Source: Akkermansia muciniphila (lineage in GTDB: Bacteria; Verrucomicrobiota; Verrucomicrobiia; Verrucomicrobiales; V1-33). Taken from it: DNA of 64,000 nucleotides. The position numbers and the translations under genes were made by a program. The stretch covers positions 15,512 to 79,511 of the forward strand of contig CAMDJM010000004.1 of NCBI GenBank assembly GCA_945900785.1. Direction: 5' to 3'. The notes under the pieces are model-generated. The model ran no database searches, had not been told where the DNA came from, and saw only the letters and a program-made list of their open reading frames with translations. Positions 9,039 through 51,474 of the stretch are shown piece after piece (the first letter of the stretch is position 1; every line of letters starts with the position of its first letter).

Positions 9039-9116
9039 GGGATAAAATGGGTGTGCGGGACCGCCCCGGCACGGAGCCGGAACGATCCCGCGGATTGCAG
9101 GCAGGGGGGATATGAA

Positions 9117-9944
9117 TCAGCCAGCTGGAGGCGCAGGCAGCAGCACGGCGGTGTTATCGAATTCGACATTGGTCCCACCGTTGACGGCGAGAGTGGCGGG
9201 CTCGCGGAAAGCCCCGGTGAAGGAGGCCAGGGTGTTGTCGTTGAACATATTGCTCACCGAGGCGCTGCTGATGGCGATGGCGAAACCGTAGCGGGCGATG
9301 TGGTTGTTATAAATACTGTCGCCGCTGGGACCAGCAGGGGTGCCGAGGCCATCCGGATTGTAGCAAATCCCGAGCAGATTGTTCCCGGCGATGGTGCCGC
9401 CGGTGACGATGTTTTGGCTAAGGCGGTTTCCGCTGCTGCCGCCGCCCCGGATGAAGAGGCCGAGATTTACGGCGGAGATCTGGTTATTCTTGATATCGCA
9501 GGCGCTGCTGTTGATGAGGGTGATGCCCACCTCGGTGGGGCCGCCGGCGGGGGCGAGGTTGCCCCCGGCGATCTGCAGGCCGTCAACCCTGACATTTTGA
9601 CTGTCCACGATGGTGACGCCGTTATTGAAACCGGCAATGTGGCCGTTTTTGATTTCCACATTCCGCGCCCCCTGCACGCTGATGCCGCGGGTGCCATTGG
9701 GTCCGGGAGCCGGAGCCGTCGTCGTGGCACTGGCCGTGGTGGTGGCGCTGAATCCATTCAGATCCAGGGTGACATTGGAGGCGGTGATGATGATGGCATG
9801 GCCGGCGGCCACCCGGTAGTTGCTGAACAATTTGTAGCTGCCGGGGCGGTTGATGGTCCACTGGGCGCAGGCGGAGCCGGCACAAAGCAGGGAGGCGGTG
9901 ACGGCGGCAAAGACCGTGGCGGTGGATCGGAGTTGAAGAGACAT
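9117..9944 (-). CDS. secreted right-handed parallel beta-helix repeat protein
   Basis: The tracked ORF is 9117..10187. The ATG at 9944 gives MSLQLRSTATVFAAVTASLLCAGSACAQ (signal peptide). Periodic N/G-rich coils (NVEIKNGHIAGFNNGVTIVDSQNVRVDGLQIAG, SACDIKNNQISAVNLGLFIRGG) are typical of pectate-lyase/NosD-like beta-helices. Confidence 0.8.
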   Translation of the reverse strand: MSLQLRSTATVFAAVTASLLCAGSACAQWTINRPGSYKLFSNYRVAAGHAIIITASNVTLDLNGFSATTTASATTTAPAPGPNGTRGISVQGARNVEIKNGHIAGFNNGVTIVDSQNVRVDGLQIAGGNLAPAGGPTEVGITLINSSACDIKNNQISAVNLGLFIRGGGSSGNRLSQNIVTGGTIAGNNLLGICYNPDGLGTPAGPSGDSIYNNHIARYGFAIAISSASVSNMFNDNTLASFTGAFREPATLAVNGGTNVEFDNTAVLLPAPPAG

Positions 9945-9950
9945 GAGGAG

Positions 9951-9970
9951 TTGGTTGGTTGGTTGGTTGG
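9951..9970. repeat. (TTGG)5 tetranucleotide repeat, read (CCAA)5 on the coding strand
   Basis: The sequence is ttggttggttggttggttgg, 7-26 nt upstream of the beta-helix gene start codon. A shorter copy, ggagttggttggttgg, sits upstream of the rhodanese gene at 32158-32173. Confidence 0.9.
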
Positions 9971-10259
9971 TGTTATAACGCTCCCTGGAACCCTGGCAGG
10001 AGATCTGTCGTTTTTTAAATTCCAGGGAACACCGCTGGGAGCACCGCCGCGCCGGGTCTATTCCATGGCCCGTAAAAAAAATTCCGGACGTGACCGCCGG
10101 GCTCTTTTTCGCCGCAGGAGAGGAATGAATTTCACCGGACAGGGAATTTTTCCTGCACCGCATGGAATAAATGTCCCGCATTGCCACTCCCTGAAGAGTG
10201 CGGTGCGTCAGATGAACCGAAAAACCGCAGCAAATTTAGCAACAAGACTCCAAACCATT

Positions 10260-11456
10260 ATGAAAATGCCTCATTCTCCGTCCCGCCATTGGGTTGTCTC
10301 CGTCTGCTGGCTGGCGATTTGGTTCGCCGCCGGTTGGCCTGCCGCCGCTCAATCGACCTATGCCAGAGCCGGTTGGCAGGCCACCTTATCCACCGTGTCG
10401 CACGGCGTGCGGGGCACGGCTACCATTCTGGATGAAAACACCTACCGGGTGGACAATTTTCATTATGACGGGTTTGGAATAACGGTTTATTTCTATCTGG
10501 GAGCCACGGATACGAGGGCGGATTTTCTCCAGGGATTGAGCACGGGTCCCGACCTCATTGGCACTCCCTACAATGGCGGCTCTATCACGATTGATCTGCC
10601 GCCGGGAAAAACGTTCGATGACTACCGGGCTGTTTCCGTTTGGTGCACGGCGGCCGGGGTGAGCTTCGGGTCCGGCACCTTCATGCCGTATGTCCGGGCT
10701 GGCTGGCAGGCCCCGCTTTCCACGGTTTCCCATGGTGTGCGCGGGACGGTGACGCTGGTCGATGCCGATACCTTCCGGGTGGATAACTTCTATTACGATG
10801 GTCTCGGCATCTCGGTCTTTTTCTACCTCGGAGCCACGGATCTCAGAGCATCATTCAGCGCGGGGCTGGCGGTCGGGCCTCAGTTACTGCGTTCCAACCC
10901 TTATGTGAATGAATCGCTGACGGTCCATCTCCCGGCAGGCCGGACTTTCACCGGCTATCAAGCCATCTCAGTGTGGTGCGTGGGCATCGGTTCCAGCTTC
11001 GGCTCCGGCACTTTTGTCAGTCCCCGGGAGAACTGGAGGAAGTCCCACTTCACCTCTTCCGCCAACTCCGGGAACGGCGCGGATCCCTTGGATTTCGATA
11101 AAGACGGGCAGGCCAACCTGCTGGAATACGCCACGCGCACGGATCCGCGCGCCCCCGGAGCCAGCCCGTGGAATCCCCCCGTTTCCATGATGCTGCCCGG
11201 ATCCGTTCCCGCCCTCCAATTCACCTTCAATTACCGGCCGGAATCACGGGACATCCGCTATCTTGTCCTGGCCAGTCCCGATCTGGCGACATGGACGGAA
11301 ATCTATCGCAATGACCCGAGGTCGGGTGTCGTCACCCGCGCGGGCAGTTTAGCCAGTCAGGAAAACCCGGCCACCCAGTCGGTCACCCTTACTGAACCCG
11401 CGCCTTCTGCTGGATTGCCGTTGTTCTGGCGGCTCGCGGTAGAACCCGTGCCGTAG
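10260..11456 (+). CDS. secreted protein with two tandem DM13 domains and the shared C-terminal module
   Basis: The long tracked ORF 9051..11456 is antisense to the beta-helix gene over its 5' part. A start at ATG 10260 (MKMPHSPSRHWVVSVCWLAIWFAAGWPAAAQ) or 10212 is plausible. There are two repeats of HGVRGT..L.D...FRVDNF.YDG.GI.V.FYLG...VSVWC...FGSGTF. The tail reads DPLDFDKDGQANLLEYATRTDP ... LQFTFNYR...SPDLATWTE...LFWRLAV. Confidence 0.8.
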   Translation: MKMPHSPSRHWVVSVCWLAIWFAAGWPAAAQSTYARAGWQATLSTVSHGVRGTATILDENTYRVDNFHYDGFGITVYFYLGATDTRADFLQGLSTGPDLIGTPYNGGSITIDLPPGKTFDDYRAVSVWCTAAGVSFGSGTFMPYVRAGWQAPLSTVSHGVRGTVTLVDADTFRVDNFYYDGLGISVFFYLGATDLRASFSAGLAVGPQLLRSNPYVNESLTVHLPAGRTFTGYQAISVWCVGIGSSFGSGTFVSPRENWRKSHFTSSANSGNGADPLDFDKDGQANLLEYATRTDPRAPGASPWNPPVSMMLPGSVPALQFTFNYRPESRDIRYLVLASPDLATWTEIYRNDPRSGVVTRAGSLASQENPATQSVTLTEPAPSAGLPLFWRLAVEPVP

Positions 11457-11596
11457 CAGCCTGTTGAAAAATCAGGAGCACGGCCATCCTGGCTGTGTGT
11501 TTCAGATCGCGATCAGGATTTTTCTCCGTTATCGGGCACGCAACAATCACGAAACACACAGGCGGGACGCCTGTGCTCCTGTTTTTCAATTCCGGG

Positions 11597-12157
11597 GTGG
11601 TCAAGTCAGCCCGGCAGGTGGGGGAGCAGGCACCGAAGTTTTCCCTGAGCAATGCCACGGGCAAGGCGGTCAGCCTGGATAGCCTGCTGGACCAAGGACC
11701 GGTGGTGGTGACGTGGTATCGCGGCGGGTGGTGCCCGTATTGCAGTATCACCCTGCGGGCGCTCCAGAAAGCCCTGCCTGACATCCATGCCGCCGGAGCC
11801 CAACTGGTGGCCCTGACTCCGGAACTGCCCGACAAGTCGGCCGCGACGGCGGGGAAGAACGAGGTGAAATTCGAAATCCTGACCGACCTTGACCACGCGG
11901 TGGCGAAGCAATATGGCGTCGTTTTTAAACTCACCCCGGAAGTCCACGACCTCTACCGGACGAAGTTCAATCTGACCGATTTCAACGGGGCCGGGGCCGG
12001 CAATGATGAACTGCCGCTGGCCGCCACCTACATCATCGGGCAGGACGGTGTGATCCGTTACGCCTTCCTGCATGCGGACTACCGGGAGCGGGCGGAACCC
12101 GCCGCGCTGATCACCTTTCTGAAGGAAAACAAAGCCATCCTGACGGTCAGACCCTGA
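11597..12157 (+). CDS. peroxiredoxin-like (AhpC/TSA, PRX-like2-type) thioredoxin-fold protein
   Basis: The motif VVVTWYRGGWCPYCSITLRAL and the overall AhpC/TSA layout support the call. The start is uncertain: GTG at 11597 (chosen) or GTG at 11495 (tracked ORF). There is no in-frame ATG. Confidence 0.8.
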   Translation: MVKSARQVGEQAPKFSLSNATGKAVSLDSLLDQGPVVVTWYRGGWCPYCSITLRALQKALPDIHAAGAQLVALTPELPDKSAATAGKNEVKFEILTDLDHAVAKQYGVVFKLTPEVHDLYRTKFNLTDFNGAGAGNDELPLAATYIIGQDGVIRYAFLHADYRERAEPAALITFLKENKAILTVRP

Positions 12158-14254: not shown

Positions 14255-15982
14255 CTATCCGCGCCGGCCTTTGAAGGTGAGTTCCGCGATGCCGGATTTG
14301 TCGAGTTCGCCGAGGTTGAGTTCGATCATGCGGTCGTATTGGGCGGCGGTGGCGGCGGCGAGGGGGAGGTTGAGGCCGGCGTCCTTGGCGAGGGAGAGGG
14401 CGATGTGGCTGTCCTTGGCGGCGTGGTCGGCGCGGAAGAAACAGGAGTGCTCGCGCTGGATCATGTCGTCGCCATCGGTCTGGAGGACGCGGCTGTTGGC
14501 TCCGGTGACGCTGAATACTTTGGCGAGCATTTCGAGGTCGAGGCCGAGGGCGGCTCCGAGGCCGAGGCCTTCGGCGAGGCCGGCAGTGTTGATGTTCATG
14601 ACCATGTTGACGAGGGCTTTGACCTTGGCGGCCTGACCGGCGGAGCCGACGTAGGTGAGGACGGCGCTCATGGTTTTGAGGAGGGGTTCGACTTTATGGA
14701 AGACTGCTTCCTGACCGCCGATCATGAGCTGGAGGGTGCCTTCGCGGGCCTGGGGGATGCTGGAGGCCATGCAGCCTTCGATGGTGCTGGCCCCGATGGC
14801 GGCGGCGGCCGTTTCGAGGTCGATGTGGACCTGCGGGGTGAGGGTGGCGCAGTTGAGGAAGGTCTTGCCAGCGGCTCCCATGAAGAGGTTGTCTTCCTGG
14901 TTATAAAAGATGGCCTTCATGGCTTCGTCGTTGGTGACGACGGTGAAGATGATGTCGGCCGCAGCGGTGACATCGGCGAGTTTAGTGCAGACGGTGGCTC
15001 CGATTTCGGCGGCGACTTCGGCGGCAGCTTCCGGGCTGACATCATAGACGGCGGTGACCTGATAACCGACTTCCCGGACGCGGCGGGCCATGTTGCCGCC
15101 CATGCGGCCGACTCCAACGAAGGCAATTTTTTCTTTCATGGCAGGATTGGTGGAGGGTTTGAATTCTGGATAGAAGGGGTTGTGGGCTTTTTCTTCGGCG
15201 ATGGTGGTGAGGGGGCCGTGGCCGGGGGCGACGATGGTTTCGCCGGGCAGGGAGAAGAGGCGGTGGCGGTTGTGGTCGAGGGCTTGAGCCCATGAGGTGC
15301 GGGGGCCGCCCATGGAGCCGGCGAAGAGGGCATCGCCCACGATGACGAGGGGGGCGGTGAGGCCGCCAATCACATAACTCATGCCGCAGGTGGCGTGGCC
15401 GGAGGTTTCGCGGGCTTCGAGGGTGAGGGCACCGATGGTGGCTTTAAAGCCGAGGTCGATGGGCTGGGAATCCGGGAGGTTTTCCCTACGGCCGCAGAGG
15501 ACGGTAGCATTTGGCCACGCGGCACGCAGGGCGGGCAGGGCGACAATGTGGTCGATGTGGGTGTGGGTGATGTAGATGTGTTCGATCTTCAGCCCGTGTT
15601 CAGCGACGGCAGCCAGGGTGGGGGCGGGATCGGTGCCGGTGTCGAAGAGGGCAGCGGCTTTGCTGACCGGATCGAAGACGATGTAGTGATTCACCGTCAT
15701 GTCATGTTCCGCGAAATAGGTGTTGAAGTGCAGCAGGCCTGCCAATTCCACTTCTGCAGGTTGCCAAGCCTTCCGGGCAAGGGCGAGCATGGAGGTGGGA
15801 TCGATCTGGAGGAGGGGGGCGACCTGGCGGAGCGGGCCTTCGAGGAGGGTTCCGGAAAGGAGTGAGGTCAGGGAGGCGACGGGGATGCCGGCACGGAAGG
15901 CGAGGTCTTCGCTGGTGAGGCCATGGCCTTTTTGGGCTTTGCCAAGGAGGTCTTCAAAATTGTCTTCGAGGGGCAGTTTCAT
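14255..15982 (-). CDS. three-module fusion: XRE-like HTH, MBL-fold metallo-hydrolase and NAD(P)-dependent beta-hydroxyacid dehydrogenase (HIBADH/6PGDH-type)
   Basis: 575-aa uninterrupted ORF. The N-terminal LTSEDLAFRAGIPVASLTSLLSG looks like an HTH. THTHIDH is the HxHxDH motif of the MBL fold. After an internal Met (complement ATG at 15139) comes MKEKIAFVGVGRMGGNMA, a Rossmann GxGxxG, followed by a HIBADH-like C-terminal half. Confidence 0.8.
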   Translation of the reverse strand: MKLPLEDNFEDLLGKAQKGHGLTSEDLAFRAGIPVASLTSLLSGTLLEGPLRQVAPLLQIDPTSMLALARKAWQPAEVELAGLLHFNTYFAEHDMTVNHYIVFDPVSKAAALFDTGTDPAPTLAAVAEHGLKIEHIYITHTHIDHIVALPALRAAWPNATVLCGRRENLPDSQPIDLGFKATIGALTLEARETSGHATCGMSYVIGGLTAPLVIVGDALFAGSMGGPRTSWAQALDHNRHRLFSLPGETIVAPGHGPLTTIAEEKAHNPFYPEFKPSTNPAMKEKIAFVGVGRMGGNMARRVREVGYQVTAVYDVSPEAAAEVAAEIGATVCTKLADVTAAADIIFTVVTNDEAMKAIFYNQEDNLFMGAAGKTFLNCATLTPQVHIDLETAAAAIGASTIEGCMASSIPQAREGTLQLMIGGQEAVFHKVEPLLKTMSAVLTYVGSAGQAAKVKALVNMVMNINTAGLAEGLGLGAALGLDLEMLAKVFSVTGANSRVLQTDGDDMIQREHSCFFRADHAAKDSHIALSLAKDAGLNLPLAAATAAQYDRMIELNLGELDKSGIAELTFKGRRG

Positions 15983-16021
15983 GATAGCGATGAAGTTGGG
16001 CTGATGGGGAATAGTCAGGTC

Positions 16022-17404
<1,383 letters not shown>

Positions 17405-17663
17405 GCTGGGATTGGTGGATTTAAAGATCTAGGGAGGGGGAAAGCGTTCTGGGTGCTGCGTTTTACGGGCGGCCCATCGAGGCCTAAGGGGGCGGGAAGC
17501 AGTGGGGGGCGCAATCGGAAAATGCCGGGAGACGAAGCTCTGAGCGGGCTGGAGGAGGCGGATCGAAGCTTGGTTTTGGGATTCAATCCTTAAGTCGGAT
17601 AAACCTTCAGCTTTCACTTAGCAGTATCAAATTTGCAAAAACGATCACTTTCGCAAAAAATAT

Positions 17664-17692
17664 TTGCATGACAGGGGTAGATACCTTATAAT
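17664..17692 (+). promoter_or_regulatory. near-consensus sigma70-type promoter for the 17735.. operon
   Basis: TTGCAT (17664-17669), an exact 17-nt spacer, then TATAAT (17687-17692). It lies in a conspicuous AT-rich island. Upstream A-tracts (tttgcaaaaa, tttcgcaaaaaa) look UP-element-like. Two ATCGAT palindromes at 17699-17704 and 17710-17715 sit just downstream. Confidence 0.55.
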
Positions 17693-17734: not shown

Positions 17735-19520
17735 ATGTCTGGAAATTATCGTTATCTTGGTTGGCTGCTCCTGCTTTGGGGGATGCTGCTTTGTGGGGCG
17801 GTGGAAGCAGCGGGCGTGAAGACCTATAACAAGGTAGGCTTGGAGATGCAGTGGCGTTGGAAACAGGAAAAACTGGGATTTGGCGGCGGCATGGCCAGGG
17901 AGGGTTGGGACGTGACCCGGGCGGATTTTTTGGATATCCGGTTTGGCGCTGCGGCGGGCGGACGGCAGTTGGTTGGAAACCGGTGGCTGGCAGGCTTGTT
18001 TTAAAGGCGCCGAGGGCCGGACGTCGGCTTTTTTGGAAGGCGTGCCAGGTCAGGTGTTTACGGGGTTGAGGTTTGTGATAGGGCTGGATCAGGTATTGAA
18101 TGAAGCCGACCCGAATCTTTGGCCTGCAGGCCATGCGCTGCACCCCACGGTGAATGGACTGCACTGGGGCTGGCAGGGGGGCCACATTTTTATGGCGCTG
18201 GAAGGGCACCGGCAACTGGCGCAGGGCGGACCGGATGGGTTTTCCTATCACTTGGCCGGCACGGGGAATCAGATGACGGTGGTGCTGGAGCAGCCCTTGG
18301 ACCTCACCCGTGGCGGCACCATTGGCCTTGGCTTTGATGTGGCAAAAGTCCTGGAGGGACTGGCTCCGGATTTCGGCGCTTCAACTCATTCACGGGCCGG
18401 GGATGAACGGGCGGACGCGCTGCGGAAGCGGGTGGAGCAGGCTTTTGTGGTGACCGGGATCAGTCCGGAAATTTGGCAGGCAGTGCCCCTGGCGGAGCGG
18501 GTTGCCAGGAGTCAGGTTCCCGCCGGCACGCCGTGGCCGATGCAGATTTCCAGCCGTCTGCCCAAGGTGGTGCTGCCGGCGGACAATGTGCCGGTAGTGG
18601 CGGGAGTGGAGCTGGGCCGGCGGCTGTTTCAGGAGAAGCGGCTATCTGTCAATCAGACCCAATCGTGCGCTTCCTGTCACGATCAAAAGGCGGCTTTCAC
18701 GGATCCGGGGAAACGTTATAGTGTGGGGGCAGAAGGCCGGACCGGGACGCGCAATGCCATGCCCCTGTTCAATCTGGCCTGGCAGAGCGAGTTCTTCTGG
18801 GACGGCCGGGTGAAGCGTCTGCGGGATCAGGTGCTGGTGCCCCTGCAGGATCCGGTGGAGATGCACGGCTCGCTGGAGGCTGCCGTTCAGGTCTTGTCAG
18901 GAGATGCCGGCTACCGGGAGGATTTTGGAAAAGTGTTTGGTCCCGGCGGAGTGACAGCGGAACGCCTTGGACTGGCTCTGGAGCAGTATTTACTGACGCT
19001 GGTGTCACAGGATTCGAAGTTTGACCAGGCGGTGCTGGGCCGCGCCAAATTGAGCCCGCAGGAGCAGCGCGGACTGGAGTTGTTTATTACAGAGTATGAT
19101 CCGCCAAGGAATTTGCGTGGGGCGGATTGTTTCCATTGTCATGGGGGGAATCTGTTTTCGAATCAGGGCTTTTCCAATAACGGACTGGAGGCGGCCCCGG
19201 AAGCCGGGCGGCAGGCGGTGACCGGGCAGGCAGCCGATCAGGGGAAGTTCCGGGTGCCCTCCCTGCGCAACGTGGCCTTGACAGCTCCTTACATGCATGA
19301 TGGCCGTTTCTCGACCCTGGAGGAAGTGATCGACCACTACGATCATGGGGTGCATCCCTCACCCACGCTGGATCCCAACCTCGCTAAACATCCTGCCGCC
19401 GGCCTCGCTCTGCCGGCAGCAGACAAGGGTGCCCTGGTGGCTTTTCTGAAATCTCTATCAGATAGCCAGTTTCCGGATTCCCGCCCGGCGGCTTCCATTT
19501 CATCCATTTCCAAGCCATGA
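17735..19520 (+). CDS. secreted MbnP-like domain fused to a di-heme cytochrome c peroxidase (MauG/MbnH-like); apparent 1-nt frameshift near 17940
   Basis: ORF 17735..18004 encodes a signal peptide (MSGNYRYLGWLLLLWGMLLCGAVEA) and the start of the domain (...WDVTRADFLDIR). ORF 17943..19520 continues in the next frame (LALRRADGSWLE...GLRFVIGLD...HPTVNGLHWGWQGGHIFMALEG). Removing one T from cgg-ttt-ggc joins them seamlessly. The heme motifs are CASCH (18666-18680) and CFHCH (19128-19142), and the tail reads PSLRNVALTAPYMHDGRFSTLEEVIDHY. Confidence 0.75.
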
Positions 19521-22500
19521 ATAAATCCAGAATTTTCGCTGCGACCCTCGCAGGGATGGTCACCTCCTTTCCAGCCAACACTGTCCATGCGGATGTGACC
19601 CATGCCCAGGACGATGCGTTTTATGCAGCGGCGGCGGCCCTGCTGCCGTCCTTCCAGGGCGTGCCGGCTCCCGTGAATCCAGCGGAGTCGGTGAATGCGG
19701 GTGCCTGGGCTGCTCCCATCAATTTTCCCCACGTGCCGGTGACCGCAGCGAATCTGCCGGATGGCCGCATCCTGACTTATGCTTCCAATCAGCGGACTTC
19801 GTTTCCGGCCGGCCCTGAATTTACCTATGCCGCGGTGTGGAATCCCAGCACCAACACCATCACGGAGATCAACTGGAACCAGCATGACATGTTCTGCGGG
19901 GGAACCGTATTGCGCTCGGATGGCCGGTTTCAGGTGATGGGAGGACGCAATATTGTTAGGTCCTCCAGTATCTTCAATTGGCAAACCAATGCCTGGAGCC
20001 GCACGGCGGACATGAACGATCCCCGCTGGTATACTTCTTCCGCGATCCTGCCAGGCGGGGATGTGTTTACGCTGTCAGGCAGTGGCGGCGACAATACCGC
20101 CGAGCGCTTCAATGGCACCTCATGGCGGAAGTTTTCCAATATCAACTGGAGCCCTGTCGCCAGCCAGGCCGTGATCGAGGCCAACTGGACACCGATGATT
20201 TTCCTGGCTCCGGATGGACGGCTGTTCCATGCGGGTCCTACCAAAACCATGAATTGGGTGAACCCGGAGGGCAATGGCCTCATCAACACTTCCGGGGCGG
20301 TCTATCCTGGAACCTGGTATCCCAAGGATGCTGCCATTGTGATGTATGAGCCGGGCAAACTCCTCGTCGCGGGCGGCCTCGCCACGGGAACGGCGGAAAC
20401 GCCCACCAACCTGGCCTGTAAAATCGATCTCTACACCGATCCGCCCACCGTGACGCCCCTGCCAGCTATGGCGAACCTCCGGCGGTTTTCCAACGGCATC
20501 GTGCTGCCCACGGGGGAGGTCCTTGTGATGGGAGGCAATACGTCCGGCCAGAAATTCAGCGATGCCGGTTCCTTCCTGGCTGCTGAAATCTGGAATCCCC
20601 GCACCGGTCTCTGGCGCACCGTGGCCAGTCAGGCGGTGCCCCGGAACTATCACTCGGTCGCCCTGCTCCTGACGGATGGGAAAGTCATGTCAGGAGGCAG
20701 TGGGCTCGCCGGCAATGCGGCGGTGGATCACAGCAATATCGAAGTTTACAGCCCGCCCGCGCTGTTCACCGGCACGGGCCAGGCTGCGGTGCAGCCCTCC
20801 CTCACAGCGGCACCTTCCACCATCGGCTCCACCGGGCGCTTTACCGTCCAGGGCACCGCAGGGCTGTTGCGCTTTGCCATGATCCGGATGGCCTCCACGA
20901 CCCACGGACTTTCCACGGACCAGCGGTATTTCAGCCCGGCCTTTGCCGAAACCGCCCCCGGCAGCTACGAACTGTCCCCGCATGATAACATCAATGTGAT
21001 GAATCCCGGCTATTGGATGCTCTTTGGGGTGGATGCCAATGGCGTGCCCTCCCGGGCCCGCGTGATCCTCGTCAGCGCCACCGCCACCGTCGCATTGCCT
21101 GGGGTCAATCTCGCGCTGGGCAAGGCGACCTCCCAATCCTCCAACTTCGATGGTAGCCTGACCTCCAACCGGGCGGTGGATGGGGTCACCAATGGTGATT
21201 TTGGGGTCGCACCAGGGGTGCATACCCAGTCCGAAGCCAATGCTTGGTGGCAGGTGGATCTGGGGGCGGTCTATCCGCTGAATGCGGTGCGCATTTTCAA
21301 CCGGGGCAATAACCTCGGGTCCCACCTGACGGATTTTTCGGTTCATGTCAGCAATTTTCCGTTTGATGATGCCAACACGGATACCACCAGCTACCGCTAC
21401 CTGAGCACGCCCGGGCCGGAGACGGTGGTCAATCTCTACCGCAGCGCCCGCTACCTGCGCGTCCAGCTCAATGGGACCAACTTCCTGCAACTGGCCGAAG
21501 TCCAGGTGATGGGGACCAATGCACCGGTCACTGGAGTCGTGGTGCAAAACCCGGGACCGCAGTATAGCCCCCGGCTGGGCACGGTCAGCTTCCTTCCTGC
21601 TGCCACCGCACCCAGCCCGGTGACCTGGACTGCCACCGGCCTGCCGGCAGGACTCAATATCGATGCCGGCACCGGCCGTATCACCGGCACCCCCACCACC
21701 CTGGGGGATCAAACTGTGACCCTCACCGCAGCCATGGCCAATGGCGTGAATAACAGTCAGTCCTTCCTATGGACGGTTCATGCTCCCGGGGAAGTCCCCG
21801 GCCTGACCTACCGGTATTATGAAGGATCGTGGACTGTCCTCCCTGACTTCAGTTTGCTGACACCGCTGCGTTCCGGGGTGGTGCCGGCGTTCTCCATCGC
21901 GCCACGGGAGCGGGAGAGCAATTACGCCCTGACCTTTGAGGGGAATCTGCGCATCCCCACCGCCGGGACCTGGACTTTCTACAGCAACTCCGACGATGGC
22001 AGCCAGGTCTGGATCGATGGCCGCCTGGTGGTGAATCATGATGGCGTGCACACCGCCAGTGAAGCCAATGGCAGCATCACCCTGCCAGCCGGGGTGCACC
22101 GCATCACGGTGGCTTATTTCCAGAGCACGGGGACGATGGGGCTCGACGTGAGCTATGCCGGCCCGGGCACCGCCAGGCAGCCCATCCCTGTGAATGCGCT
22201 CTACCAGCCATTGCCTGGAGTGCGTTTTGACTATTACGAGGGCGTATGGAATGCGCTGCCTAACTTTAATTCCCTTGTTCCGTTCCTTTCGGGCGATACA
22301 GACACCTTCAATCTTGCCGGGAGGCTCAGGGATGACAATTTCGCAATGCGCTTCCGTGCCTCCCTGCGCACTCCGGTGGCTGGCAGCTACACCTTTTATA
22401 CCGCCTCCGACGATGGCAGCCGTCTCCTGATTGATGGTGCGGTGGTGGTGAATAATGATGGCCTTCATGCCACGGCGGAGCAGCAGGGGACGGTAAACCT

Positions 22501-25500
22501 AACGGATGGCGTTCATGATATTGAAGTGCAGTTTTTCGAACAGGGCGGCGATCAGGTGCTGGTGGTGAGTTATGCCGGACCGGGTCTCACGCGGCGCGTG
22601 ATTCCGGAGAGCGTCCTCGCCGCGCCCGGTGTCCCTGGCACCGCGCCCGTGGTGACGGCTCTGGCTGCCCGCACGACTTTGAAGGGGACGGCGGTTTCAG
22701 TGCCTGTGATCGGCACAGATGCCAACAATGATCCCCTGAGCTATTCCGCCAGCGGCCTGCCCACCGGTTTGGGCATCAATGCCAGCACGGGCCTCATTTC
22801 CGGCACCCCCACGACGGCGGGCAGCTTCGCCGTCACCGTGACCGTGAATGATGGCACGGGCCGGAATGGCAGCACTTCGTTCAATTGGACCATCGTCAAT
22901 CCCCTGACGCTTTCTCCCATGACGGCTGTTGCCCGGCCGGCCGGCACAGCGATCAGCTATAGCGCGATTTCCACCGGGGGACTGAATCCGAAATTCCGTT
23001 GGAATTTTGGCGATGGCACCGGTGACACCGTGGCCAGCAGCAGCTTGGTCATCTCCAGGACCTTTGCCCAGCCGGGACGTTATCAGATCTCGGTGATTGC
23101 CTCGGATGATAGCGGAGCAAATCTCGCCCAGGTCTTTATCCAGGCGGTCCACGGGACCCTCGCCGCCACGCCTCCGGTAAGTTCCAGCCCCCTGGCATGG
23201 CAGACCAGGACCGGAGTGAACCGGATCTGGGTGGTGAATCCCGATGCCAATTCCGTCAGTGTGTTCAACGCGGCCACCAATGCCAAACTGGCGGAAACGG
23301 CCGTAGGCCTCCAGCCCGTCAGCGTCGCCATTGCGCCGGATGGCCGGGCCTGGGTGGTGAATAAAAAGTCCGCCACCATCAGCCTGCTCAATCCTGACAC
23401 CTTCGCCGTGGCGGCCACGGTTTCCTTGGCAAGGGCCTCACAGCCGCATGGTCTCGCCTTTGCCCCCAATGGCGGCGCGGCTTTCCTTGCCCTGGAAGGG
23501 ACGGGCCAGTTGTTGAAACTGAACCCAGCTACCGCCGCTATCACCGGCACCCTGGCGGCCGGGCCGGATGTCAGGCACCTTTCTGTCAGTGCAGACAGCG
23601 GCAAGGTTTACCTCTCCCGGTTTATCACGCCGGCGCTGCCGGGCGAATCCACGTCCGTGGTGCAATCCACCGTGGGATCGGTGAATCACGGGGGACAGGT
23701 CCTCGTGGTGACAGCGGCATCCATGGCCCTGTCAAAAACCATCATCCTGCAGCACAGCGAACGCCCGGATGCGGAAAATGCCGGACGTGGTATTCCCAAT
23801 TATCTCGGCCCTCCCGTGCTGTCGCCGGATGGCACGGCGGCGTGGGTTCCTGGCAAGCAGGATAACATTAAGCGAGGGGTGCTGCGGGACACCCGGCAGT
23901 TGGGGCACGATTCCACGGTGCGGGCCATCAATTCCCGCATCAATACCCTGACCGATACTGAGGACTACGCCTCCCGGATTGACTTCGACGATTCTGCGGT
24001 GCCGTCCCATGCCGTCTTCGATCCCACCGGATTGTTGCTCTACGCGGCCATGGAAGGCAGCCGCCAGGTGGCGGTGGTGGATGCCATGGCCCGCAGCGTC
24101 CTTTTCAAAATCGATGCCGGGCGGGCTCCCCAGGGGCTGGCGCTTTCGCCGGATGGGACCCGCCTCTTTGTGCAAAACTTCATGGACCGCACGGTGCAGG
24201 CCTTTGATCTGACTGTTCTGGTGAATGGCGGGCGTCCCGCCGGTTCGGATATTACACCGGTGGCCACCTGGAACACCGTCGCCGTGGAGCCGCTGCCGGC
24301 CAATATCCTGACTGGGAAACGCTTCTTCTACGATGCCCGGGATCCGCGGATTTCCCTGCAAAGTTATATCAGCTGTGCGGCCTGTCACAATGATGGCGGC
24401 CACGATGGCCGCGTCTGGGATTTCACCGGCATGGGCGAAGGTCTGCGCAATACCACCGACCTGCGCGGCAAAGCCGGCACCGGGCAGGGGCCCGCCCATT
24501 GGACGGGAAATTTTGATGAGGTCCAGGACTTCGAAAAACAAATCCGTGATCTCGGACGCGGCACCGGATTGATGGCGGACAGTGACTTCAATGCTGGCAC
24601 CCGCAGCCAACCACTGGGCGCGCCCAAGGCAGGACTGAGTGCCGATCTCGATGCCCTCGCGGCCTATGTCAGTTCCCTGACTGCTGCGGTCCCCAGCCCC
24701 AACCGGAATGCCGATAGTTCCCTCACTGCTGCTGCCGTGGCCGGACGGGAGGTCTTCCGCAGTGCCAACTGCGCCCAGTGCCACAGCGGCACGGGATTCA
24801 CCAACAGCGCCCTGAATAACCTGCGGAACATCGGCACCATCAAGCCTTCCAGTGGTCAGCGTCTCGGAGCTGTCCTGACTGGATTGGACACGCCGACACT
24901 CCGGAGCCTGTGGAACACGGCACCCTATTTGCATGATGGATCCGCCGCCACCCTCACCGCCGCCGTGCAAGCCCACCAGGGGGTTACCCTGACACCGGCC
25001 AAACTGGTCAGCCTTGTCGCCTATCTGGCCCAAGCCGATGACGCCGAAACCACCGCGCCGGTCCCTGCTGTCACTGGGGGGAGCGGTCCAGGCCTGTTGG
25101 GCGAATACTTCCCGGGGATGACTCCAGGCGTGGCGGCACCGGTCCTGACGCGCACCGATCCTGGCATTGATTTCGATTGGGGGGGCGGTTCCCCCGGGCC
25201 TGCGGTGCCGGTGGATAACTTCTCCGCCCGCTGGACGGGGTTCATTACGGCCGCCTACAGCGAAACCTACACGTTCTTTGTGCCCTCCGACAATGGTGTG
25301 CGGGTCTGGATCAATAACCAACTGGTGCTGGACAAATGGACTCCGCTCGACATTGCCGCCTGGCACAATTTCACCCTGCCGATGACGGCGAATCAGGCAG
25401 TTCCCCTAAAAGTGGAATATGCCGAACTGTCCGGCGGTGCGAATATCACCCTGTTCTGGTTCAGCAATACCCAGCTTTGGGAAAGTGTTGGCGCCAACCG

Positions 25501-26815
25501 CCTGAGCACCGGTCCGGCGGTGAACCGGGAACCGCTCCTGACCACGCCTGCCGCCCAATCCACGGTGCGCGGCCGCGCCGCCTCCCTCACGGTGCAGGCC
25601 AGCGATCCTGACTTCAATCCCCTGACTTATTCAGCCGCCGGTTTGCCGGCCGGCCTGTCCATCAGCAGCACCAGTGGACTCATCTCCGGCACCGTCACCC
25701 TGACGGCATCGTCTTCCCATACCGTCAGCCTGACTGTTTCCGATGGCACCCTTTCCGCCACCACCTCCTTTGCCTGGAGCACCACGGCTCCGCCCGCGAA
25801 CCGGGCTCCGGTGTTGAACAATCCAGGCACCCAGTCAGCGGTGCGGGGTTCTGTGGTCGTCCTGCGGCCACTGGCTTCGGATCCGGATTCCGATCCCCTG
25901 ACATGGAGCGCGGTGGGCCTGCCCCCGGGCCTGACCCTGAATGTCACGACCGGCCAGATCTCCGGGATTCTGGATAGCAATGCGGCTGCTGCCTACACGG
26001 TTTCCCTTGCGGTGCAGGACCCAGGTGGCCTGACTTCCAATGCCACCTTCATCTGGAATACGACAGCGCCGCCTATCAATGGGCTGCGGGGTGAATATTT
26101 TGGCGGCATGGAGCCCGGAGTGGGTGCCCCTCTGCTGGTCCGCACGGATGCCACGATCAACTTTGACTGGGGCGGGGGATCGCCCAGTCCCGCCGTTCCG
26201 GTGGATTATTTCTCCGCCCGCTGGACCGGCACCCTGACCGCTCCCTTCACTGAAACTTACACTATCTATGTGCCGTCGGACAATGGGGTGCGGGTTTGGA
26301 TCAATAACCAATTGGTGCTCGACAAGTGGACGCCCCTGGACATCTCGGGATGGCATAATTTCACGATCAATCTAACCGCTGGTCAGGTCGTGCCGGTCAA
26401 GGTGGAATATGCTGAACTCTACGGCGGGGCCGGCATCACGCTCTACTGGTTCAGTCCCAGCCTGCCATGGGAGGTCATCGCCTCCAGCCGTCTCAGCCCT
26501 GCGGTCACGGTGACGCCAGGATCCTCCTCCGGGGCGTTGGAAATGGTGCAGGCGACCCAGCGGATGACGGCTTCACAGGGCCATCTCTTCTTCACTTTCA
26601 GGCGTCCCTCCTCTTCCGCTGCTGAAGTCGCGATCCTGGTGCAGAGCAGCAGCGATCTGAAGCAATGGAGTCCTGTCAATTTGCCGGCCCAGGTGGTGCA
26701 GTCGCTGGATGGCATGGATGAAATCAGGATTGCGGTGCCGCCCCCCGCCGGTCCGGAGGGAGCCCATTATTTCCGGCTCCAACTGGTGACGCCGGATCCC
26801 GTGGCGGATCCCTGA
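19517..26815 (+). CDS. giant secreted multidomain protein: galactose-oxidase-type copper radical oxidase, lectin/PA14/Ig/PKD modules, beta-propeller and a di-heme peroxidase domain
   Basis: 2432-aa ORF whose ATG overlaps the upstream stop (ATGA at 19517-19520). The signal peptide is MNKSRIFAATLAGMVTSFPANTVHA. Approximate domain map from motifs:
- galactose-oxidase-like propeller plus Ig-like domain, 19.70-21.08 kb (HDMFCGG Cys codon 19895; WY 20027-20032; YH 20648-20653; TTH 20897-20905);
- F5/8-type-C lectin, 21.10-21.52 kb;
- Ig-like, 21.54-21.78 kb;
- PA14 x2, 21.80-22.61 kb;
- Ig-like, 22.64-22.89 kb;
- PKD, 22.89-23.14 kb;
- YVTN-type beta-propeller, 23.2-24.3 kb;
- CCP/MauG-like domain, 24.3-25.03 kb (CAACH 24374-24388, CAQCH 24770-24784, TAPYLHDGS);
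- PA14, 25.09-25.51 kb;
- Ig-like x2;
- PA14, 26.08-26.50 kb;
- C-terminal beta module. Confidence 0.88.
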   Translation: MNKSRIFAATLAGMVTSFPANTVHADVTHAQDDAFYAAAAALLPSFQGVPAPVNPAESVNAGAWAAPINFPHVPVTAANLPDGRILTYASNQRTSFPAGPEFTYAAVWNPSTNTITEINWNQHDMFCGGTVLRSDGRFQVMGGRNIVRSSSIFNWQTNAWSRTADMNDPRWYTSSAILPGGDVFTLSGSGGDNTAERFNGTSWRKFSNINWSPVASQAVIEANWTPMIFLAPDGRLFHAGPTKTMNWVNPEGNGLINTSGAVYPGTWYPKDAAIVMYEPGKLLVAGGLATGTAETPTNLACKIDLYTDPPTVTPLPAMANLRRFSNGIVLPTGEVLVMGGNTSGQKFSDAGSFLAAEIWNPRTGLWRTVASQAVPRNYHSVALLLTDGKVMSGGSGLAGNAAVDHSNIEVYSPPALFTGTGQAAVQPSLTAAPSTIGSTGRFTVQGTAGLLRFAMIRMASTTHGLSTDQRYFSPAFAETAPGSYELSPHDNINVMNPGYWMLFGVDANGVPSRARVILVSATATVALPGVNLALGKATSQSSNFDGSLTSNRAVDGVTNGDFGVAPGVHTQSEANAWWQVDLGAVYPLNAVRIFNRGNNLGSHLTDFSVHVSNFPFDDANTDTTSYRYLSTPGPETVVNLYRSARYLRVQLNGTNFLQLAEVQVMGTNAPVTGVVVQNPGPQYSPRLGTVSFLPAATAPSPVTWTATGLPAGLNIDAGTGRITGTPTTLGDQTVTLTAAMANGVNNSQSFLWTVHAPGEVPGLTYRYYEGSWTVLPDFSLLTPLRSGVVPAFSIAPRERESNYALTFEGNLRIPTAGTWTFYSNSDDGSQVWIDGRLVVNHDGVHTASEANGSITLPAGVHRITVAYFQSTGTMGLDVSYAGPGTARQPIPVNALYQPLPGVRFDYYEGVWNALPNFNSLVPFLSGDTDTFNLAGRLRDDNFAMRFRASLRTPVAGSYTFYTASDDGSRLLIDGAVVVNNDGLHATAEQQGTVNLTDGVHDIEVQFFEQGGDQVLVVSYAGPGLTRRVIPESVLAAPGVPGTAPVVTALAARTTLKGTAVSVPVIGTDANNDPLSYSASGLPTGLGINASTGLISGTPTTAGSFAVTVTVNDGTGRNGSTSFNWTIVNPLTLSPMTAVARPAGTAISYSAISTGGLNPKFRWNFGDGTGDTVASSSLVISRTFAQPGRYQISVIASDDSGANLAQVFIQAVHGTLAATPPVSSSPLAWQTRTGVNRIWVVNPDANSVSVFNAATNAKLAETAVGLQPVSVAIAPDGRAWVVNKKSATISLLNPDTFAVAATVSLARASQPHGLAFAPNGGAAFLALEGTGQLLKLNPATAAITGTLAAGPDVRHLSVSADSGKVYLSRFITPALPGESTSVVQSTVGSVNHGGQVLVVTAASMALSKTIILQHSERPDAENAGRGIPNYLGPPVLSPDGTAAWVPGKQDNIKRGVLRDTRQLGHDSTVRAINSRINTLTDTEDYASRIDFDDSAVPSHAVFDPTGLLLYAAMEGSRQVAVVDAMARSVLFKIDAGRAPQGLALSPDGTRLFVQNFMDRTVQAFDLTVLVNGGRPAGSDITPVATWNTVAVEPLPANILTGKRFFYDARDPRISLQSYISCAACHNDGGHDGRVWDFTGMGEGLRNTTDLRGKAGTGQGPAHWTGNFDEVQDFEKQIRDLGRGTGLMADSDFNAGTRSQPLGAPKAGLSADLDALAAYVSSLTAAVPSPNRNADSSLTAAAVAGREVFRSANCAQCHSGTGFTNSALNNLRNIGTIKPSSGQRLGAVLTGLDTPTLRSLWNTAPYLHDGSAATLTAAVQAHQGVTLTPAKLVSLVAYLAQADDAETTAPVPAVTGGSGPGLLGEYFPGMTPGVAAPVLTRTDPGIDFDWGGGSPGPAVPVDNFSARWTGFITAAYSETYTFFVPSDNGVRVWINNQLVLDKWTPLDIAAWHNFTLPMTANQAVPLKVEYAELSGGANITLFWFSNTQLWESVGANRLSTGPAVNREPLLTTPAAQSTVRGRAASLTVQASDPDFNPLTYSAAGLPAGLSISSTSGLISGTVTLTASSSHTVSLTVSDGTLSATTSFAWSTTAPPANRAPVLNNPGTQSAVRGSVVVLRPLASDPDSDPLTWSAVGLPPGLTLNVTTGQISGILDSNAAAAYTVSLAVQDPGGLTSNATFIWNTTAPPINGLRGEYFGGMEPGVGAPLLVRTDATINFDWGGGSPSPAVPVDYFSARWTGTLTAPFTETYTIYVPSDNGVRVWINNQLVLDKWTPLDISGWHNFTINLTAGQVVPVKVEYAELYGGAGITLYWFSPSLPWEVIASSRLSPAVTVTPGSSSGALEMVQATQRMTASQGHLFFTFRRPSSSAAEVAILVQSSSDLKQWSPVNLPAQVVQSLDGMDEIRIAVPPPAGPEGAHYFRLQLVTPDPVADP

Positions 26816-26892
26816 CCTGGGTATCCTCTTCCATCCGGGAAAAGCAGGGATTTCCGGTTTCCAAAGCCGCCGTTTTCTGGGAGAGGGGGAGC

Positions 26893-45004: not shown

Positions 45005-45308
45005 AGGAATGAGAGGAAAGCTGATTCATGCCGGGCCTTCCGGCTGCGGGCAAGGAAAAGGTTGACAGCAAAAGCGGCCGGGCGTGGCCTTTCCTGGCCG
45101 AAGGGGGGGCCGGGTCATACTTCCTTCGCCTATTCTGCTATAATCCTGCGCTCCGGGTCTTATGATTTTCGGTATCCCGCCCCGTTGATCGGGGAAGATG
45201 GCGCATTTTCAGATAAAAGAGGGTGCAATCCTGGGTATTTGCATGCCTTGTTGCCGTAATATTCCACGCGCCGCGTGCGCTTCAGATTTTCCTTCCGAAT
45301 TCCTACCC

Positions 45309-50514: not shown

Positions 50515-51369
50515 TCAAGGCTTGCCCGGGGTGATGGGCACCGCGATGGAGGCGTAGGGGGAGCTTTGAGTGTTTTGCCAGGAACCTGGGGAATAGAGAA
50601 GGCCGCAGAGTTTGGTTTGGTCCGCCGGCAGGAAGTCAGACAGTTCGAGCCGGACCCGCCAGGCGGTGGCGGATTTTTCCCAGTGCTGGACCGGATGGGA
50701 GCAGATCAGGTTATCGAAGGAGAAGAACTGGGGGGAGTCCGGCAACAGAGTGCCGGCGGGAGGAGTGGCCGTTAACTCAATTTCCTTTTCCAGCCGCTGG
50801 GCGGTGAGGGTCCAGCCTTGCAGGGCCGGCGGCTGGGAGTGGAGAAGCTCTTTGAACTTTGAGGACCAGAGGGGGTCCGCCACGGTGGCCGGTCCGGCAT
50901 TCAGCGTGAGGGAAAGGGTGGCAAAGCCAGGATTGCAGGTGCGCTGACAGGCCATCCAGGTGGTGGCGACGGGGATGTTGACCGGTCCAGGCGGGAGGCT
51001 GGCGGGAGCGGTGATGGGCAGGGCGATGAGGACATCGTGCTCATAGCCGTGCACGCGGATGCTGGCCATCCTGACTTTGTCAGGAGGCGGATAGATCAGC
51101 GCCCCGGCGGTGAAACCTGGGGGCAGGGTGGGGACGGGTTTGGTGGCGACGCCGGCCAGTCCGGGATTTTGCCAATAGGTGTGGTAGCCGGGATCATGGC
51201 GGAGCCAGAGCCCAAGGTGGAAGGTCTGGCCGGGCTGGATGGTGGTGGCATCGGAGATCAGCTGGACGCTAAGGCCTTTGCCCGTGAAGCTGGCGGGAGC
51301 TTCTGCGGCGCACGATGGGCTGGCAGGGAGGGCACAACTCAGGAGCAGGACTGGCAGGAATCGGAACAT
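50515..51369 (-). CDS. DsbD N-terminal-domain-like (thiol:disulfide interchange) secreted protein
   Basis: 284 aa with a signal peptide. It contains HLGLWLRHDPGYHTYWQNPGLAGVATK and WMACQRTCNPG. Confidence 0.75.
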   Translation of the reverse strand: MFRFLPVLLLSCALPASPSCAAEAPASFTGKGLSVQLISDATTIQPGQTFHLGLWLRHDPGYHTYWQNPGLAGVATKPVPTLPPGFTAGALIYPPPDKVRMASIRVHGYEHDVLIALPITAPASLPPGPVNIPVATTWMACQRTCNPGFATLSLTLNAGPATVADPLWSSKFKELLHSQPPALQGWTLTAQRLEKEIELTATPPAGTLLPDSPQFFSFDNLICSHPVQHWEKSATAWRVRLELSDFLPADQTKLCGLLYSPGSWQNTQSSPYASIAVPITPGKP

Positions 51370-51474
51370 GGAGCAAATACCGGGAGGTGCGGGGGTTTTT
51401 TTCAGGAGGGAAAGACGCGCGGGTGGGAGGAAACCTCTGGAAGTGGCGTAGTTCCAGTCTTATTCCATTCTTTT

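Follow-up and report, generated by a model that had tools for sequence, protein, structure and literature searches.

Layout and integrity of the large open reading frame

The window analysed here, a stretch of 64,000 nt from Akkermansia muciniphila, contains at 19517..26815 (+) a large open reading frame (ORF) of 2432 amino acids (aa), in which two predicted redox catalysts are joined in one chain: a copper radical oxidase (CRO) near the N-terminus and, further downstream, a di-heme domain of the bacterial cytochrome c peroxidase (bCCP)/MauG superfamily. The ORF starts with ATG, runs uninterrupted over 7.3 kb with an even GC content throughout, and was found exactly where an earlier note, made from the DNA letters alone, had placed it. 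Its features are as follows.

19517..26815 (+): large ORF of 2432 aa (ORF calling, Pfam, homologue search)
19517..19591 (+): predicted Sec-type signal peptide, MNKSRIFAATLAGMVTSFPANTVHA (read off the translation)
19685..21076 (+): predicted CRO, seven-bladed kelch propeller plus E-set (aa ~57-520)
19895-19897 (+): cross-link Cys127 (BLASTP alignment)
20030-20032 (+): cross-linked Tyr172 (BLASTP alignment)
20648-20653 (+): axial Tyr378 and copper ligand His379 (BLASTP alignment)
20903-20905 (+): copper ligand His463 (BLASTP alignment)
21131..22894 (+): variable spacer/lectin block (Pfam and motif positions)
21131-21487 (+): F5/8 type C domain (aa 539-657; Pfam)
~21536-21796 (+): He_PIG domain, approximate boundaries (Pfam)
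~21800-22207 (+): PA14 domain, approximate boundaries (Pfam)
~22217-22624 (+): PA14 domain, approximate boundaries (Pfam)
22646-22894 (+): He_PIG domain (Pfam)
22907..23146 (+): PKD domain (aa ~1131-1210; Pfam span 1154-1209)
23147..24292 (+): seven-bladed YVTN/YncE-type beta-propeller (aa ~1211-1592; Pfam YNCE-type from 1206)
24293..25021 (+): predicted di-heme domain, bCCP/MauG superfamily (aa ~1593-1835)
24374-24388 (+): heme 1 motif CAACH (aa 1620-1624; sequence motif)
24500-24502 (+): inter-heme Trp1662 (alignment with bacterial peroxidases)
24770-24784 (+): heme 2 motif CAQCH (aa 1752-1756; sequence motif)
24893-24943 (+): PTLR..PYLHDG motif (aa 1793-1808; sequence motif)
24974-24976 (+): His1820, predicted sixth ligand of the second heme (profile alignment)
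25091..26458 (+): C-terminal accessory block (Pfam, motif positions)
25091-25486 (+): PA14 domain (Pfam)
~25523-26080 (+): two He_PIG/Big_9 domains (Pfam)
26081-26458 (+): PA14 domain (Pfam)
26489..26812 (+): C-terminal domain of ~108 aa, without family match (Pfam, NCBIfam)

In total, Pfam assigned four PA14 and four He_PIG domains to the ORF, some of the latter also scoring as Big_9. The accessory domains listed in the earlier note (an F5/8-type-C domain, four PA14, at least four immunoglobulin (Ig)-like domains and a PKD domain) were all recovered at their places. The two PA14 domains of the spacer block are 47% identical to each other. The C-terminal PA14 pair (25091-25486 and 26081-26458) shares 72% identity and the He_PIG pair between them 51%, which points to a recent internal duplication of the PA14-Ig unit. 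An assembly collapse of this duplicated unit is unlikely because orthologues are equal in total length. The ~108-aa C-terminal domain is mainly confined to the 16 closest homologues, with weak partial matches in four more. Attachment of c-type heme requires export, and a Sec-type signal peptide is predicted at the start of the protein.

For comparison, one genome per species was scanned, which yielded at least 580 encoding stretches. The loci described below are the best 80 of these, and the 120 best database homologues were used for the conservation of domain order and residues. We considered whether the large ORF is an artefact, be it a chimera created in assembly, a pseudogene or an adhesin whose enzyme-like domains are dead. 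The adjoining gene carries a homopolymer frameshift (see below), so errors or decay do exist in this locus. The 7.3-kb ORF itself is unbroken, however, and an identical protein was found on a contig of an independent Logan assembly (L001). Full-length orthologues with 71-84% identity exist in several further assemblies, the architecture recurs in many independent assemblies as well as in isolate genomes, and all catalytic residues are invariant. The possibility of a mis-assembled chimera, raised in the earlier note, was ruled out by the independent contig and by the recurrent domain order in homologues and loci, and we regard the artefact explanation as a whole as effectively refuted.

The two catalytic modules

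The N-terminal module was covered in Pfam by Glyoxal_oxid_N (40.7 bits), Kelch_6 and GO-like_E_set (58.6 bits). BLASTP aligned it with the galactose oxidase of Fusarium graminearum (E-value 1e-64) and reproduced the textbook numbering: Cys127 pairs with Cys228 (HDMFC), Tyr172 with Tyr272 (RWY), Tyr378/His379 with Tyr495/His496 (NYH) and His463 with His581 (TTH). This confirmed the pairing proposed in the earlier note. A PDB sequence search over the whole catalytic region returned 9g8h, named ‘galactose oxidase’ (E-value 4e-79), and 1gof (2.5e-58). In none of the 66 loci with an alignable CRO, including those of a distant clade of ~32% identity, do the five cofactor and copper residues vary, and they are at least 97% conserved among the 120 best homologues; the copper ligands are hence retained after proper alignment.

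One second-shell element of galactose oxidase has no counterpart. The position of the stacking Trp290-Ser291 is an alignment gap in the CRO, both in BLASTP and in the PDB search (TLSGS--GG vs TIGGSWSGG). Immediately ahead of the cross-link Tyr, the family has a conserved Trp instead (RWY). This Trp never varies within the closer CRO clade, and 29 of 38 loci in the distant one carry it. Membership in the GlxA equivalog (NCBIfam NF052501) was rejected, with 149.5 bits against a cut-off of 800, and by this large shortfall the protein represents a separate bacterial CRO lineage. We conclude that the domain is a predicted intact CRO of the AA5 type with all five cofactor and copper residues present.

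For the heme domain, the motifs CAACH, CAQCH and PTLRSLWNTAPYLHDGS (aa 1793-1809) all follow downstream of a YVTN-like propeller, as previously noticed. Pfam detected CCP_MauG at aa 1598-1667 (28.0 bits, cut-off 25.6) and a RoxA-like cytochrome c motif at aa 1792-1817. Among homologues, the two CXXCH motifs vary hardly or not at all, and the same holds for the inter-heme Trp and for PxLR..PYLHDG. A profile built from 28 family members and searched against the PDB matched hydrazine synthase (HZS) gamma best (5e-20), followed by Shewanella CcpA (4e-18) and Nitrosomonas CCP (6.5e-16), and more weakly BthA (7e-12) and MauG (~1e-8). In hhalign, the same profile aligned with the MbnH-like domain of the adjoining gene at 98.6% probability over 225 columns. 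These PDB matches and the hhalign result rule out that the domain is a generic cytochrome c, a possibility named in the earlier note.

A canonical bCCP or MauG identity was likewise excluded, here by the axial ligand. The invariant His1820, at profile position 228, aligns with the Met ligand of the Shewanella CcpA and Nitrosomonas CCP proteins (AVxxM) and with Tyr294 of MauG; the second heme is therefore predicted to be bis-His, like that of HZS-gamma. In HZS-gamma, the second heme is bis-His (PMC12758564). The ~70 residues past the first CXXCH align with HZS-gamma (CH..G..G.(V/I)WD(F/L)...G.G...NT) and not with bCCPs; with the latter, only ~30 residues around the first CXXCH were alignable by HMMER. 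Of the earlier assignment to the CCP/MauG type, the superfamily thus stood, supported by Pfam, the profile search and hhalign, and the canonical peroxidase or MauG did not. By these criteria the heme domain is best described as a predicted, non-canonical bCCP/MauG-superfamily member.

We modelled the PKD-propeller-di-heme region with AlphaFold2 (AF2) from an alignment of 34 sequences, with relatives at least 58% identical. The PKD domain was predicted confidently (predicted local distance difference test, pLDDT, >90), and the propeller fold, which the earlier note had read from the letters, was borne out with pLDDT mostly >90. The heme part remained of low confidence (pLDDT 23-60), with values below 50 around the first CXXCH. 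The PKD domain always immediately precedes the propeller in homologues, and the propeller carries dozens of invariant polar residues together with a conserved insertion (GRGIPNYLG...WVPGKQDN...). The best Foldseek match of the propeller was 1l0q, an archaeal YVTN+PKD S-layer fragment (E-value 2e-18), and the second-best was HZS-beta, 5c2v_B (3e-17, template modelling score 0.74).

In its architecture, the propeller plus di-heme unit resembles HZS-beta-gamma. The two HZS subunits (5c2v), fused in some anammox bacteria, likewise combine a seven-bladed propeller with a following CCP-like di-heme domain, and HZS-gamma, which among solved proteins matches the heme domain best in sequence, has the motif CH..G..G.(I/V)WD(L/F) in common with it. 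Membership in HZS was rejected, with NCBIfam scores of 63.9 against 1250 bits for hydrazine_BC, 54 against 625 for gamma and 35.4 against 560 for beta.

Distribution of the fusion and its copper-handling neighbours

The order CRO...PKD-propeller-di-heme was found in 120 of the 120 best homologues, which include proteins from Verrucomicrobiota, Chloroflexota, Acidobacteriota and the isolate Leucothrix pacifica. Among the 80 loci, nearly all of those with enough flank carry the CRO within the same ORF. These loci belong to six phyla (Verrucomicrobiota, Proteobacteria, Acidobacteriota, Chloroflexota, Myxococcota and Planctomycetota), with the proteobacterial ones in Gammaproteobacteria, including Burkholderiales and Steroidobacteraceae. 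Among the isolates with the fusion are Steroidobacter agaridevorans, Rhizobacter sp. Root1221, Methylibium sp. Root1272, Haloferula sargassicola and Leucothrix pacifica. The fusion is genuine, old, widespread and recurrent, and both catalytic modules appear intact and under selection.

Database names of the homologues are generic (‘YVTN family beta-propeller protein’, ‘DUF1929 domain-containing protein’, ‘putative Ig domain-containing protein’). In the literature, including that on PDB entries 9G8H and 9G43, we found no paper describing the fusion of a CRO with a di-heme or propeller module, in agreement with the earlier note, which had not recognised this combination as a described architecture.

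Outside the catalytic modules, the homologues differ. Their intervening and C-terminal accessory domains comprise PA14, F5/8C, legume-lectin, NPCBM, CBM6/35 and others, and the spacer between the two catalysts ranges from ~90 to >900 aa. The proteobacterial forms are short (~1460-1750 aa) and largely lack the glycan-binding scaffold, so that the minimal core consists of the CRO, one Ig-like domain, PKD, propeller and di-heme domain. Tethering to a carbohydrate surface, which the earlier note had taken as part of the design, is thus not a core trait of the family.

The variable spacers also bear on how the two catalysts might communicate. The hemes could act as an electron wire in direct exchange with the copper site or with redox partners in the periplasm, which would make the protein a cytochrome-linked dehydrogenase (comparable to quinohemoprotein or cellobiose dehydrogenases) or allow a four-electron reduction of O2 without free H2O2. 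Fusion of a catalytic domain with cytochrome c is a common wiring of dehydrogenases, the predicted bis-His second heme has a ligation typical of electron transfer, and quinohemoprotein amine dehydrogenase also pairs a beta-propeller with a di-heme cytochrome, its beta subunit (1jju_B) being a fold match. Long and highly variable CRO-heme spacers nevertheless speak against a fixed short-range path, and their variability would be better explained by a diffusible mediator. An ordinary bis-His heme, moreover, could not regenerate the Cu(II)-Tyr radical couple of CROs, which lies at ~+0.4 V in galactose oxidase, and the domain belongs with the peroxide-reactive bCCP/MauG proteins and not with simple class I cytochromes c. 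We therefore regard the wire as decidedly improbable.

The constancy of the domain order, in turn, bears on whether the modules work together at all. They could represent two unrelated activities, or an activity and a binding module, on one cell-surface scaffold, with the heme module for instance handling nitrogen oxides or hydroxylamine like its HZS relatives. The HZS matches of both the heme domain and the propeller fit this explanation, as does the fact that giant mosaic exoproteins are common in Verrucomicrobiota and that accessory domains shuffle freely. Yet the order was kept over six phyla amid shuffling of all else, the HZS models score far under their cut-offs, and no HZS-alpha-like, anammox or nitrogen-cycle genes adjoin the large ORF in the window. 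An uncoupled pair is in our view improbable.

The di-heme domain is the most conserved part of the protein. In 25 loci, the median identities to the window protein were 50% for the CRO, 52% for the propeller and 66% for the di-heme domain, and in 38 mostly proteobacterial loci 32%, 53% and 64%, respectively. The heme domain alone yielded 1129 clusters (50% identity) at an E-value ≤1e-30 in a library of 1.84 billion proteins. A CRO was present on 85 of 146 cluster representatives, and most of the remainder were fragments. About 15-20 full-length representatives, however, lack a CRO and carry instead an LVIVD-repeat propeller plus Big_5, or lectin domains only. The heme module therefore has an existence of its own, with the CRO as its commonest but not its only partner.

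Examples of such proteins are P0199, P0211, P0244, P0260 and P0248, with an N-terminal LVIVD-repeat propeller and Big_5 ahead of PKD-propeller-di-heme, and P0176, in which only PA14, F5/8C and He_PIG precede this module. In L066 (3338-7321), a CRO-less paralogue of this kind is located 28 nt upstream of a CRO-bearing one. The planctomycetotal homologue L048 (6667-7392) shows an in-frame stop inside the di-heme domain, either from pseudogenization or from a sequencing error, and the second heme part is carried on in the next ORF, also with PA14. In Leucothrix pacifica (L004, 15592-21296), genes for a 504-aa CCP_MauG protein, an unassigned 185-aa ORF and two copper amine oxidases follow 3′ of the homologue, which is another grouping of H2O2-producing copper enzymes with a di-heme enzyme.

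Since it is conserved more strongly than the CRO and also occurs without it, the propeller-di-heme module may be the main catalyst and not an accessory scavenger. It would then work as an oxidase, peroxygenase or cleaving enzyme that depends on H2O2, and its external substrate, held by the propeller, could be a glycan, an aldehyde made by the CRO or another polymer; the CRO would only supply H2O2, as fungal AA5 and AA3 oxidases feed peroxidases and lytic polysaccharide monooxygenases (LPMOs). Several observations agree with this possibility: the stronger constraint on the heme module (64-66% against 32-50% for the CRO), the dozens of invariant polar residues and the conserved insertion of the propeller, and the full-length proteins in which LVIVD propeller or lectin domains replace the CRO, including the L066 paralogue pair. 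The nearest solved relatives, HZS-beta and HZS-gamma, form a substrate-channelling catalytic pair and not a scavenger (PMC12758564), and the superfamily comprises oxygenases and protein-modifying enzymes (the RoxA motif; MauG, MbnH and BthA).

No candidate substrate emerged from the neighbourhoods, however, which are unconserved apart from copper genes, and short proteobacterial forms do without carbohydrate-binding domains. The experimental CRO-heme precedents concern activation and scavenging, and bis-His is not a ligand set known to stabilise bis-Fe(IV), which in MauG is His/Tyr. We consider this alternative, which retains the peroxide relay and is the strongest competitor of the reading favoured below, possible and short of probable. 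Slightly more doubtful is its specific form, in which PKD-propeller-di-heme proteins represent an unrecognised H2O2-dependent class akin to HZS-beta-gamma that oxidises a propeller-held external substrate, e.g., glycan-borne aldehydes or alcohols produced by the CRO. If true, the protein would be a self-fuelled two-step machine, converting O2 to H2O2 at copper and then using H2O2 for oxidation at heme, and thus a bacterial single-chain counterpart of the fungal consortia of oxidase plus peroxidase or LPMO.

Upstream of the large ORF lies a gene whose product combines MbnP (63.6 bits in Pfam) and CCP_MauG (181.7 bits). Its stop codon and the start codon of the large ORF share the sequence ATGA, making both a putative, translationally coupled two-gene operon. 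The earlier note had overlooked this copper gene. The features flanking the large ORF are as follows.

17663..17692 (+): promoter-like site TTTGCA-18-TATAAT, 10/12 positions, ~43 nt upstream of the MbnP-MbnH gene
17735..19520 (+): gene for an MbnP-like domain (HWGW, WxW) fused to an MbnH-like di-heme domain (Pfam)
26855..26869 (+): weak terminator-like hairpin 3′ of the stop codon of the large ORF, site count not above shuffle expectation

The promoter-like site is suggestive by its position only, because the number of such sites is not above shuffle expectation either. A one-base (+1) frameshift within a T6 run at ~17925-17930 interrupts the MbnP-MbnH gene; we located it by tblastn with an intact 598-aa orthologue (L002) and by reading the DNA. 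The ORF 17735..18004 encodes the signal peptide and the first ~60 aa, whereas the remainder is in the frame of 17943..19520. With T5 instead of T6, the sequence would read RADFWISGLAL, as in the intact orthologue. The independent Logan contig (L001) shows identical split gene calls, and the frameshift may be a sequencing or assembly error.

MbnH turns a Trp of MbnP into kynurenine, thereby building a copper site, and the WxW motif was defined for MbnP in the same work (PMC11951088). In the literature, MbnP and MbnH are two separate proteins. We found their fusion directly upstream of the CRO-di-heme gene in 16 of the 80 loci, all from Verrucomicrobiota (L005, L006, L008, L010, L013, L014, L019, L020, L022-L025, L046, L055, L074 and L079), in most of them as a single ORF of ~570-620 aa. 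In 27 other loci from Proteobacteria, Myxococcota and Planctomycetota, a SCO1/SenC gene adjoins the fusion gene (L027, L028, L033, L036, L039, L040, L042-L045, L047-L049, L056, L058-L062, L069, L071, L075, L077, L078, L083 and L084), on the same strand in 26 of the 27 and in many cases with an overlap of 3-13 nt with its stop codon. When 710 flanking ORFs were clustered, no further conserved neighbour emerged in more than eight loci. The constant position of the MbnP-MbnH fusion next to the CRO-di-heme gene suggests that the CRO is a defined client of MbnP/MbnH outside methanobactin operons.

The neighbourhood of the large ORF in the window consists of a fumarase gene, the MbnP-MbnH gene, an M32 carboxypeptidase gene and an AlgH-like gene. 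The fumarase gene is the upstream neighbour also in the orthologous locus L002. A 556-aa ORF at 15923..17593 (+) without family match was rejected as a shadow of the fumarase C gene (16022..17404, -). No Sco gene was found in the window; the AhpC/TSA-family ORF at 11495-12154 is not SCO1/SenC by Pfam.

Elsewhere in the window, the gene at 9051-11456 (+) codes for a protein of 801 aa that has two DM13 ‘electron transfer’ domains; it is adjoined at 11495-12157 (+) by a gene for an AhpC/TSA-family thiol peroxidase or redoxin. A mosaic protein of 1756 aa at 45198-50468 (+) contains DUF7133, HEAT repeats, cytochrome c and a C-terminal ThuA domain, and a 924-aa protein at 51037-53811 (+) has a C-terminal AhpC/TSA domain. 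An 864-aa family-2 glycosyltransferase is encoded ~16 kb downstream at 42407-45004 (-), a distance that argues against an operon with the CRO gene.

A possible peroxide relay and comparison with known systems

CROs generate H2O2 by reduction of O2, lapse into an inactive Cu(II)-Tyr form and regain activity via peroxidases. They are valued biocatalysts, and their practical use requires added peroxidase for activation and catalase for survival of their own H2O2. Natural partnerships of CROs and peroxidases have been recognised only lately, in plant-pathogenic fungi and Streptomyces. By analogy with these, we tentatively favour, at somewhat below even confidence, an H2O2 relay in cis, with the heme unit as the built-in peroxidase partner of the CRO.

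In this relay, the protein would be a Sec-exported multi-domain enzyme with two redox catalysts in one chain that are coupled via H2O2. The CRO, with copper and the Cys127-Tyr172 cofactor, would oxidise a primary alcohol or aldehyde and reduce O2 to H2O2. Its substrate is probably located on a glycan, as judged from the F5/8C and PA14 lectin-type domains, whose role in glycan binding follows from family annotation. The propeller-di-heme unit would react with this H2O2 at the first heme, and the second, predicted bis-His heme would relay electrons. The unit could thereby clear peroxide beside its source, and its oxidising equivalents may return off-cycle Cu(II)-Tyr CRO to the active Cu(II)-Tyr radical. 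The presumably co-transcribed MbnP-MbnH protein would supply periplasmic copper to the CRO, a task that may fall to a Sco chaperone in other lineages. Substrates, peroxide transfer, activation and the location of the enzyme are all inferred. Of the generator-consumer pair proposed in the earlier note, the intact modules and the genuine fusion are well supported, and their coupling via H2O2 is plausible from the CRO-peroxidase precedents.

Several points weigh against such a relay. The heme domain has neither the Met ligand of bCCPs nor the Tyr ligand of MauG, with His1820 in their place, and peroxidase chemistry is not assured because the pocket of the first heme could not be aligned with bCCPs; with pLDDT <50, the heme part of the AF2 model cannot be relied on. 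In the 38 mostly proteobacterial loci, propeller and di-heme domain are more conserved (53% and 64%) than the CRO (32%), and full-length proteins carry the module without a CRO. The many invariant propeller residues are unexplained by a simple role in scavenging or activation. Finally, removing one H2O2 per turnover would need a plentiful electron donor, for which no candidate was identified.

The single-chain fusion, found over at least six phyla and in culturable isolates, provides a Rosetta-stone argument for a general partnership of CROs and peroxidases. It offers ready-made designs for self-activating or self-detoxifying oxidases as a lead. Further leads are a branch of the di-heme peroxidase superfamily that is large, strongly conserved and so far unstudied, with its unusual predicted bis-His heme and obligate propeller, and the tie of MbnP/MbnH- and Sco-type copper proteins to a defined client, which could clarify the role of MbnP/MbnH outside methanobactin operons.

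Compared with known enzymes, the CRO shares with the Fusarium galactose oxidase (1gof) and 9g8h the seven-bladed kelch plus E-set fold, the Cys-Tyr residues, the axial Tyr and two His. The identity to 1gof is 31%, and Trp290 lacks a counterpart, the Trp of RWY being present instead. Both proteins contain a CBM32-like F5/8C domain, which follows the catalytic domain here and precedes it in the Fusarium enzyme, and ~1900 additional residues, including the heme module, are found only in the protein described here.

The heme domain shares with bCCP, MauG, MbnH and BthA, all H2O2-reactive periplasmic enzymes, a two-lobed arrangement of two c-type hemes, the Trp between them, an RN motif where bCCPs carry the Asn of the Ca site, and the PxLR..PY(F/L)HDG motif. 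It differs by the invariant His as sixth ligand of the second heme, which is Met in bCCP and Tyr in MauG and, by alignment, in MbnH. Unlike in bCCP/MauG enzymes, PKD and propeller always precede it, and its Pfam coverage is partial. HZS-beta-gamma differs by the alpha subunit and the anammox context, both absent here along with scores anywhere near the HZS cut-offs, and the module is joined here to an O2-dependent oxidase, unlike in HZS. The hosts of the CRO-di-heme family presumably include cultured aerobes. A recent paper on HZS homologues deals with other, anaerobic lineages.

The closest functional parallels are two known CRO-peroxidase systems. In the fungal Perox-AlcOx pairs, a secreted peroxidase activates its paired CRO by one-electron oxidation, and the genes are arranged head-to-head (PMC9770985, PMC12951238). 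As in our protein, selection has paired an exported AA5 CRO with a dedicated heme enzyme in these Colletotrichum and Magnaporthe systems, where the peroxidase brings the CRO to the Cu(II)-radical state and the H2O2 of the CRO serves as oxidant of the peroxidase. The fungal pair, which acts on cuticular long-chain alcohols, consists of two proteins with a class II b-type heme peroxidase, whereas a single bacterial polypeptide with c-type di-heme and propeller is found here.

GlxA of Streptomyces requires Sco and DtpA, a DyP peroxidase that uses the H2O2 made by GlxA (PMC4736821). A CRO, a heme enzyme and a copper chaperone thus come together in S. lividans as well. There, GlxA, the Tat-exported DtpA and Sco are separate proteins, and GlxA works with the glycan synthase CslA (GT2); here, CRO and heme domain form one ORF and the components are clustered, with SCO1/SenC adjoining in 27 of 80 loci and, in the window, an MbnP-MbnH fusion as copper partner in place of Sco. 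That a CRO partners with a heme peroxidase and a copper chaperone is therefore already known; new are its realisation in a single polypeptide, the use of a di-heme domain of the c-type whose obligate propeller resembles that of HZS-beta-gamma, and the connection with MbnP/MbnH.

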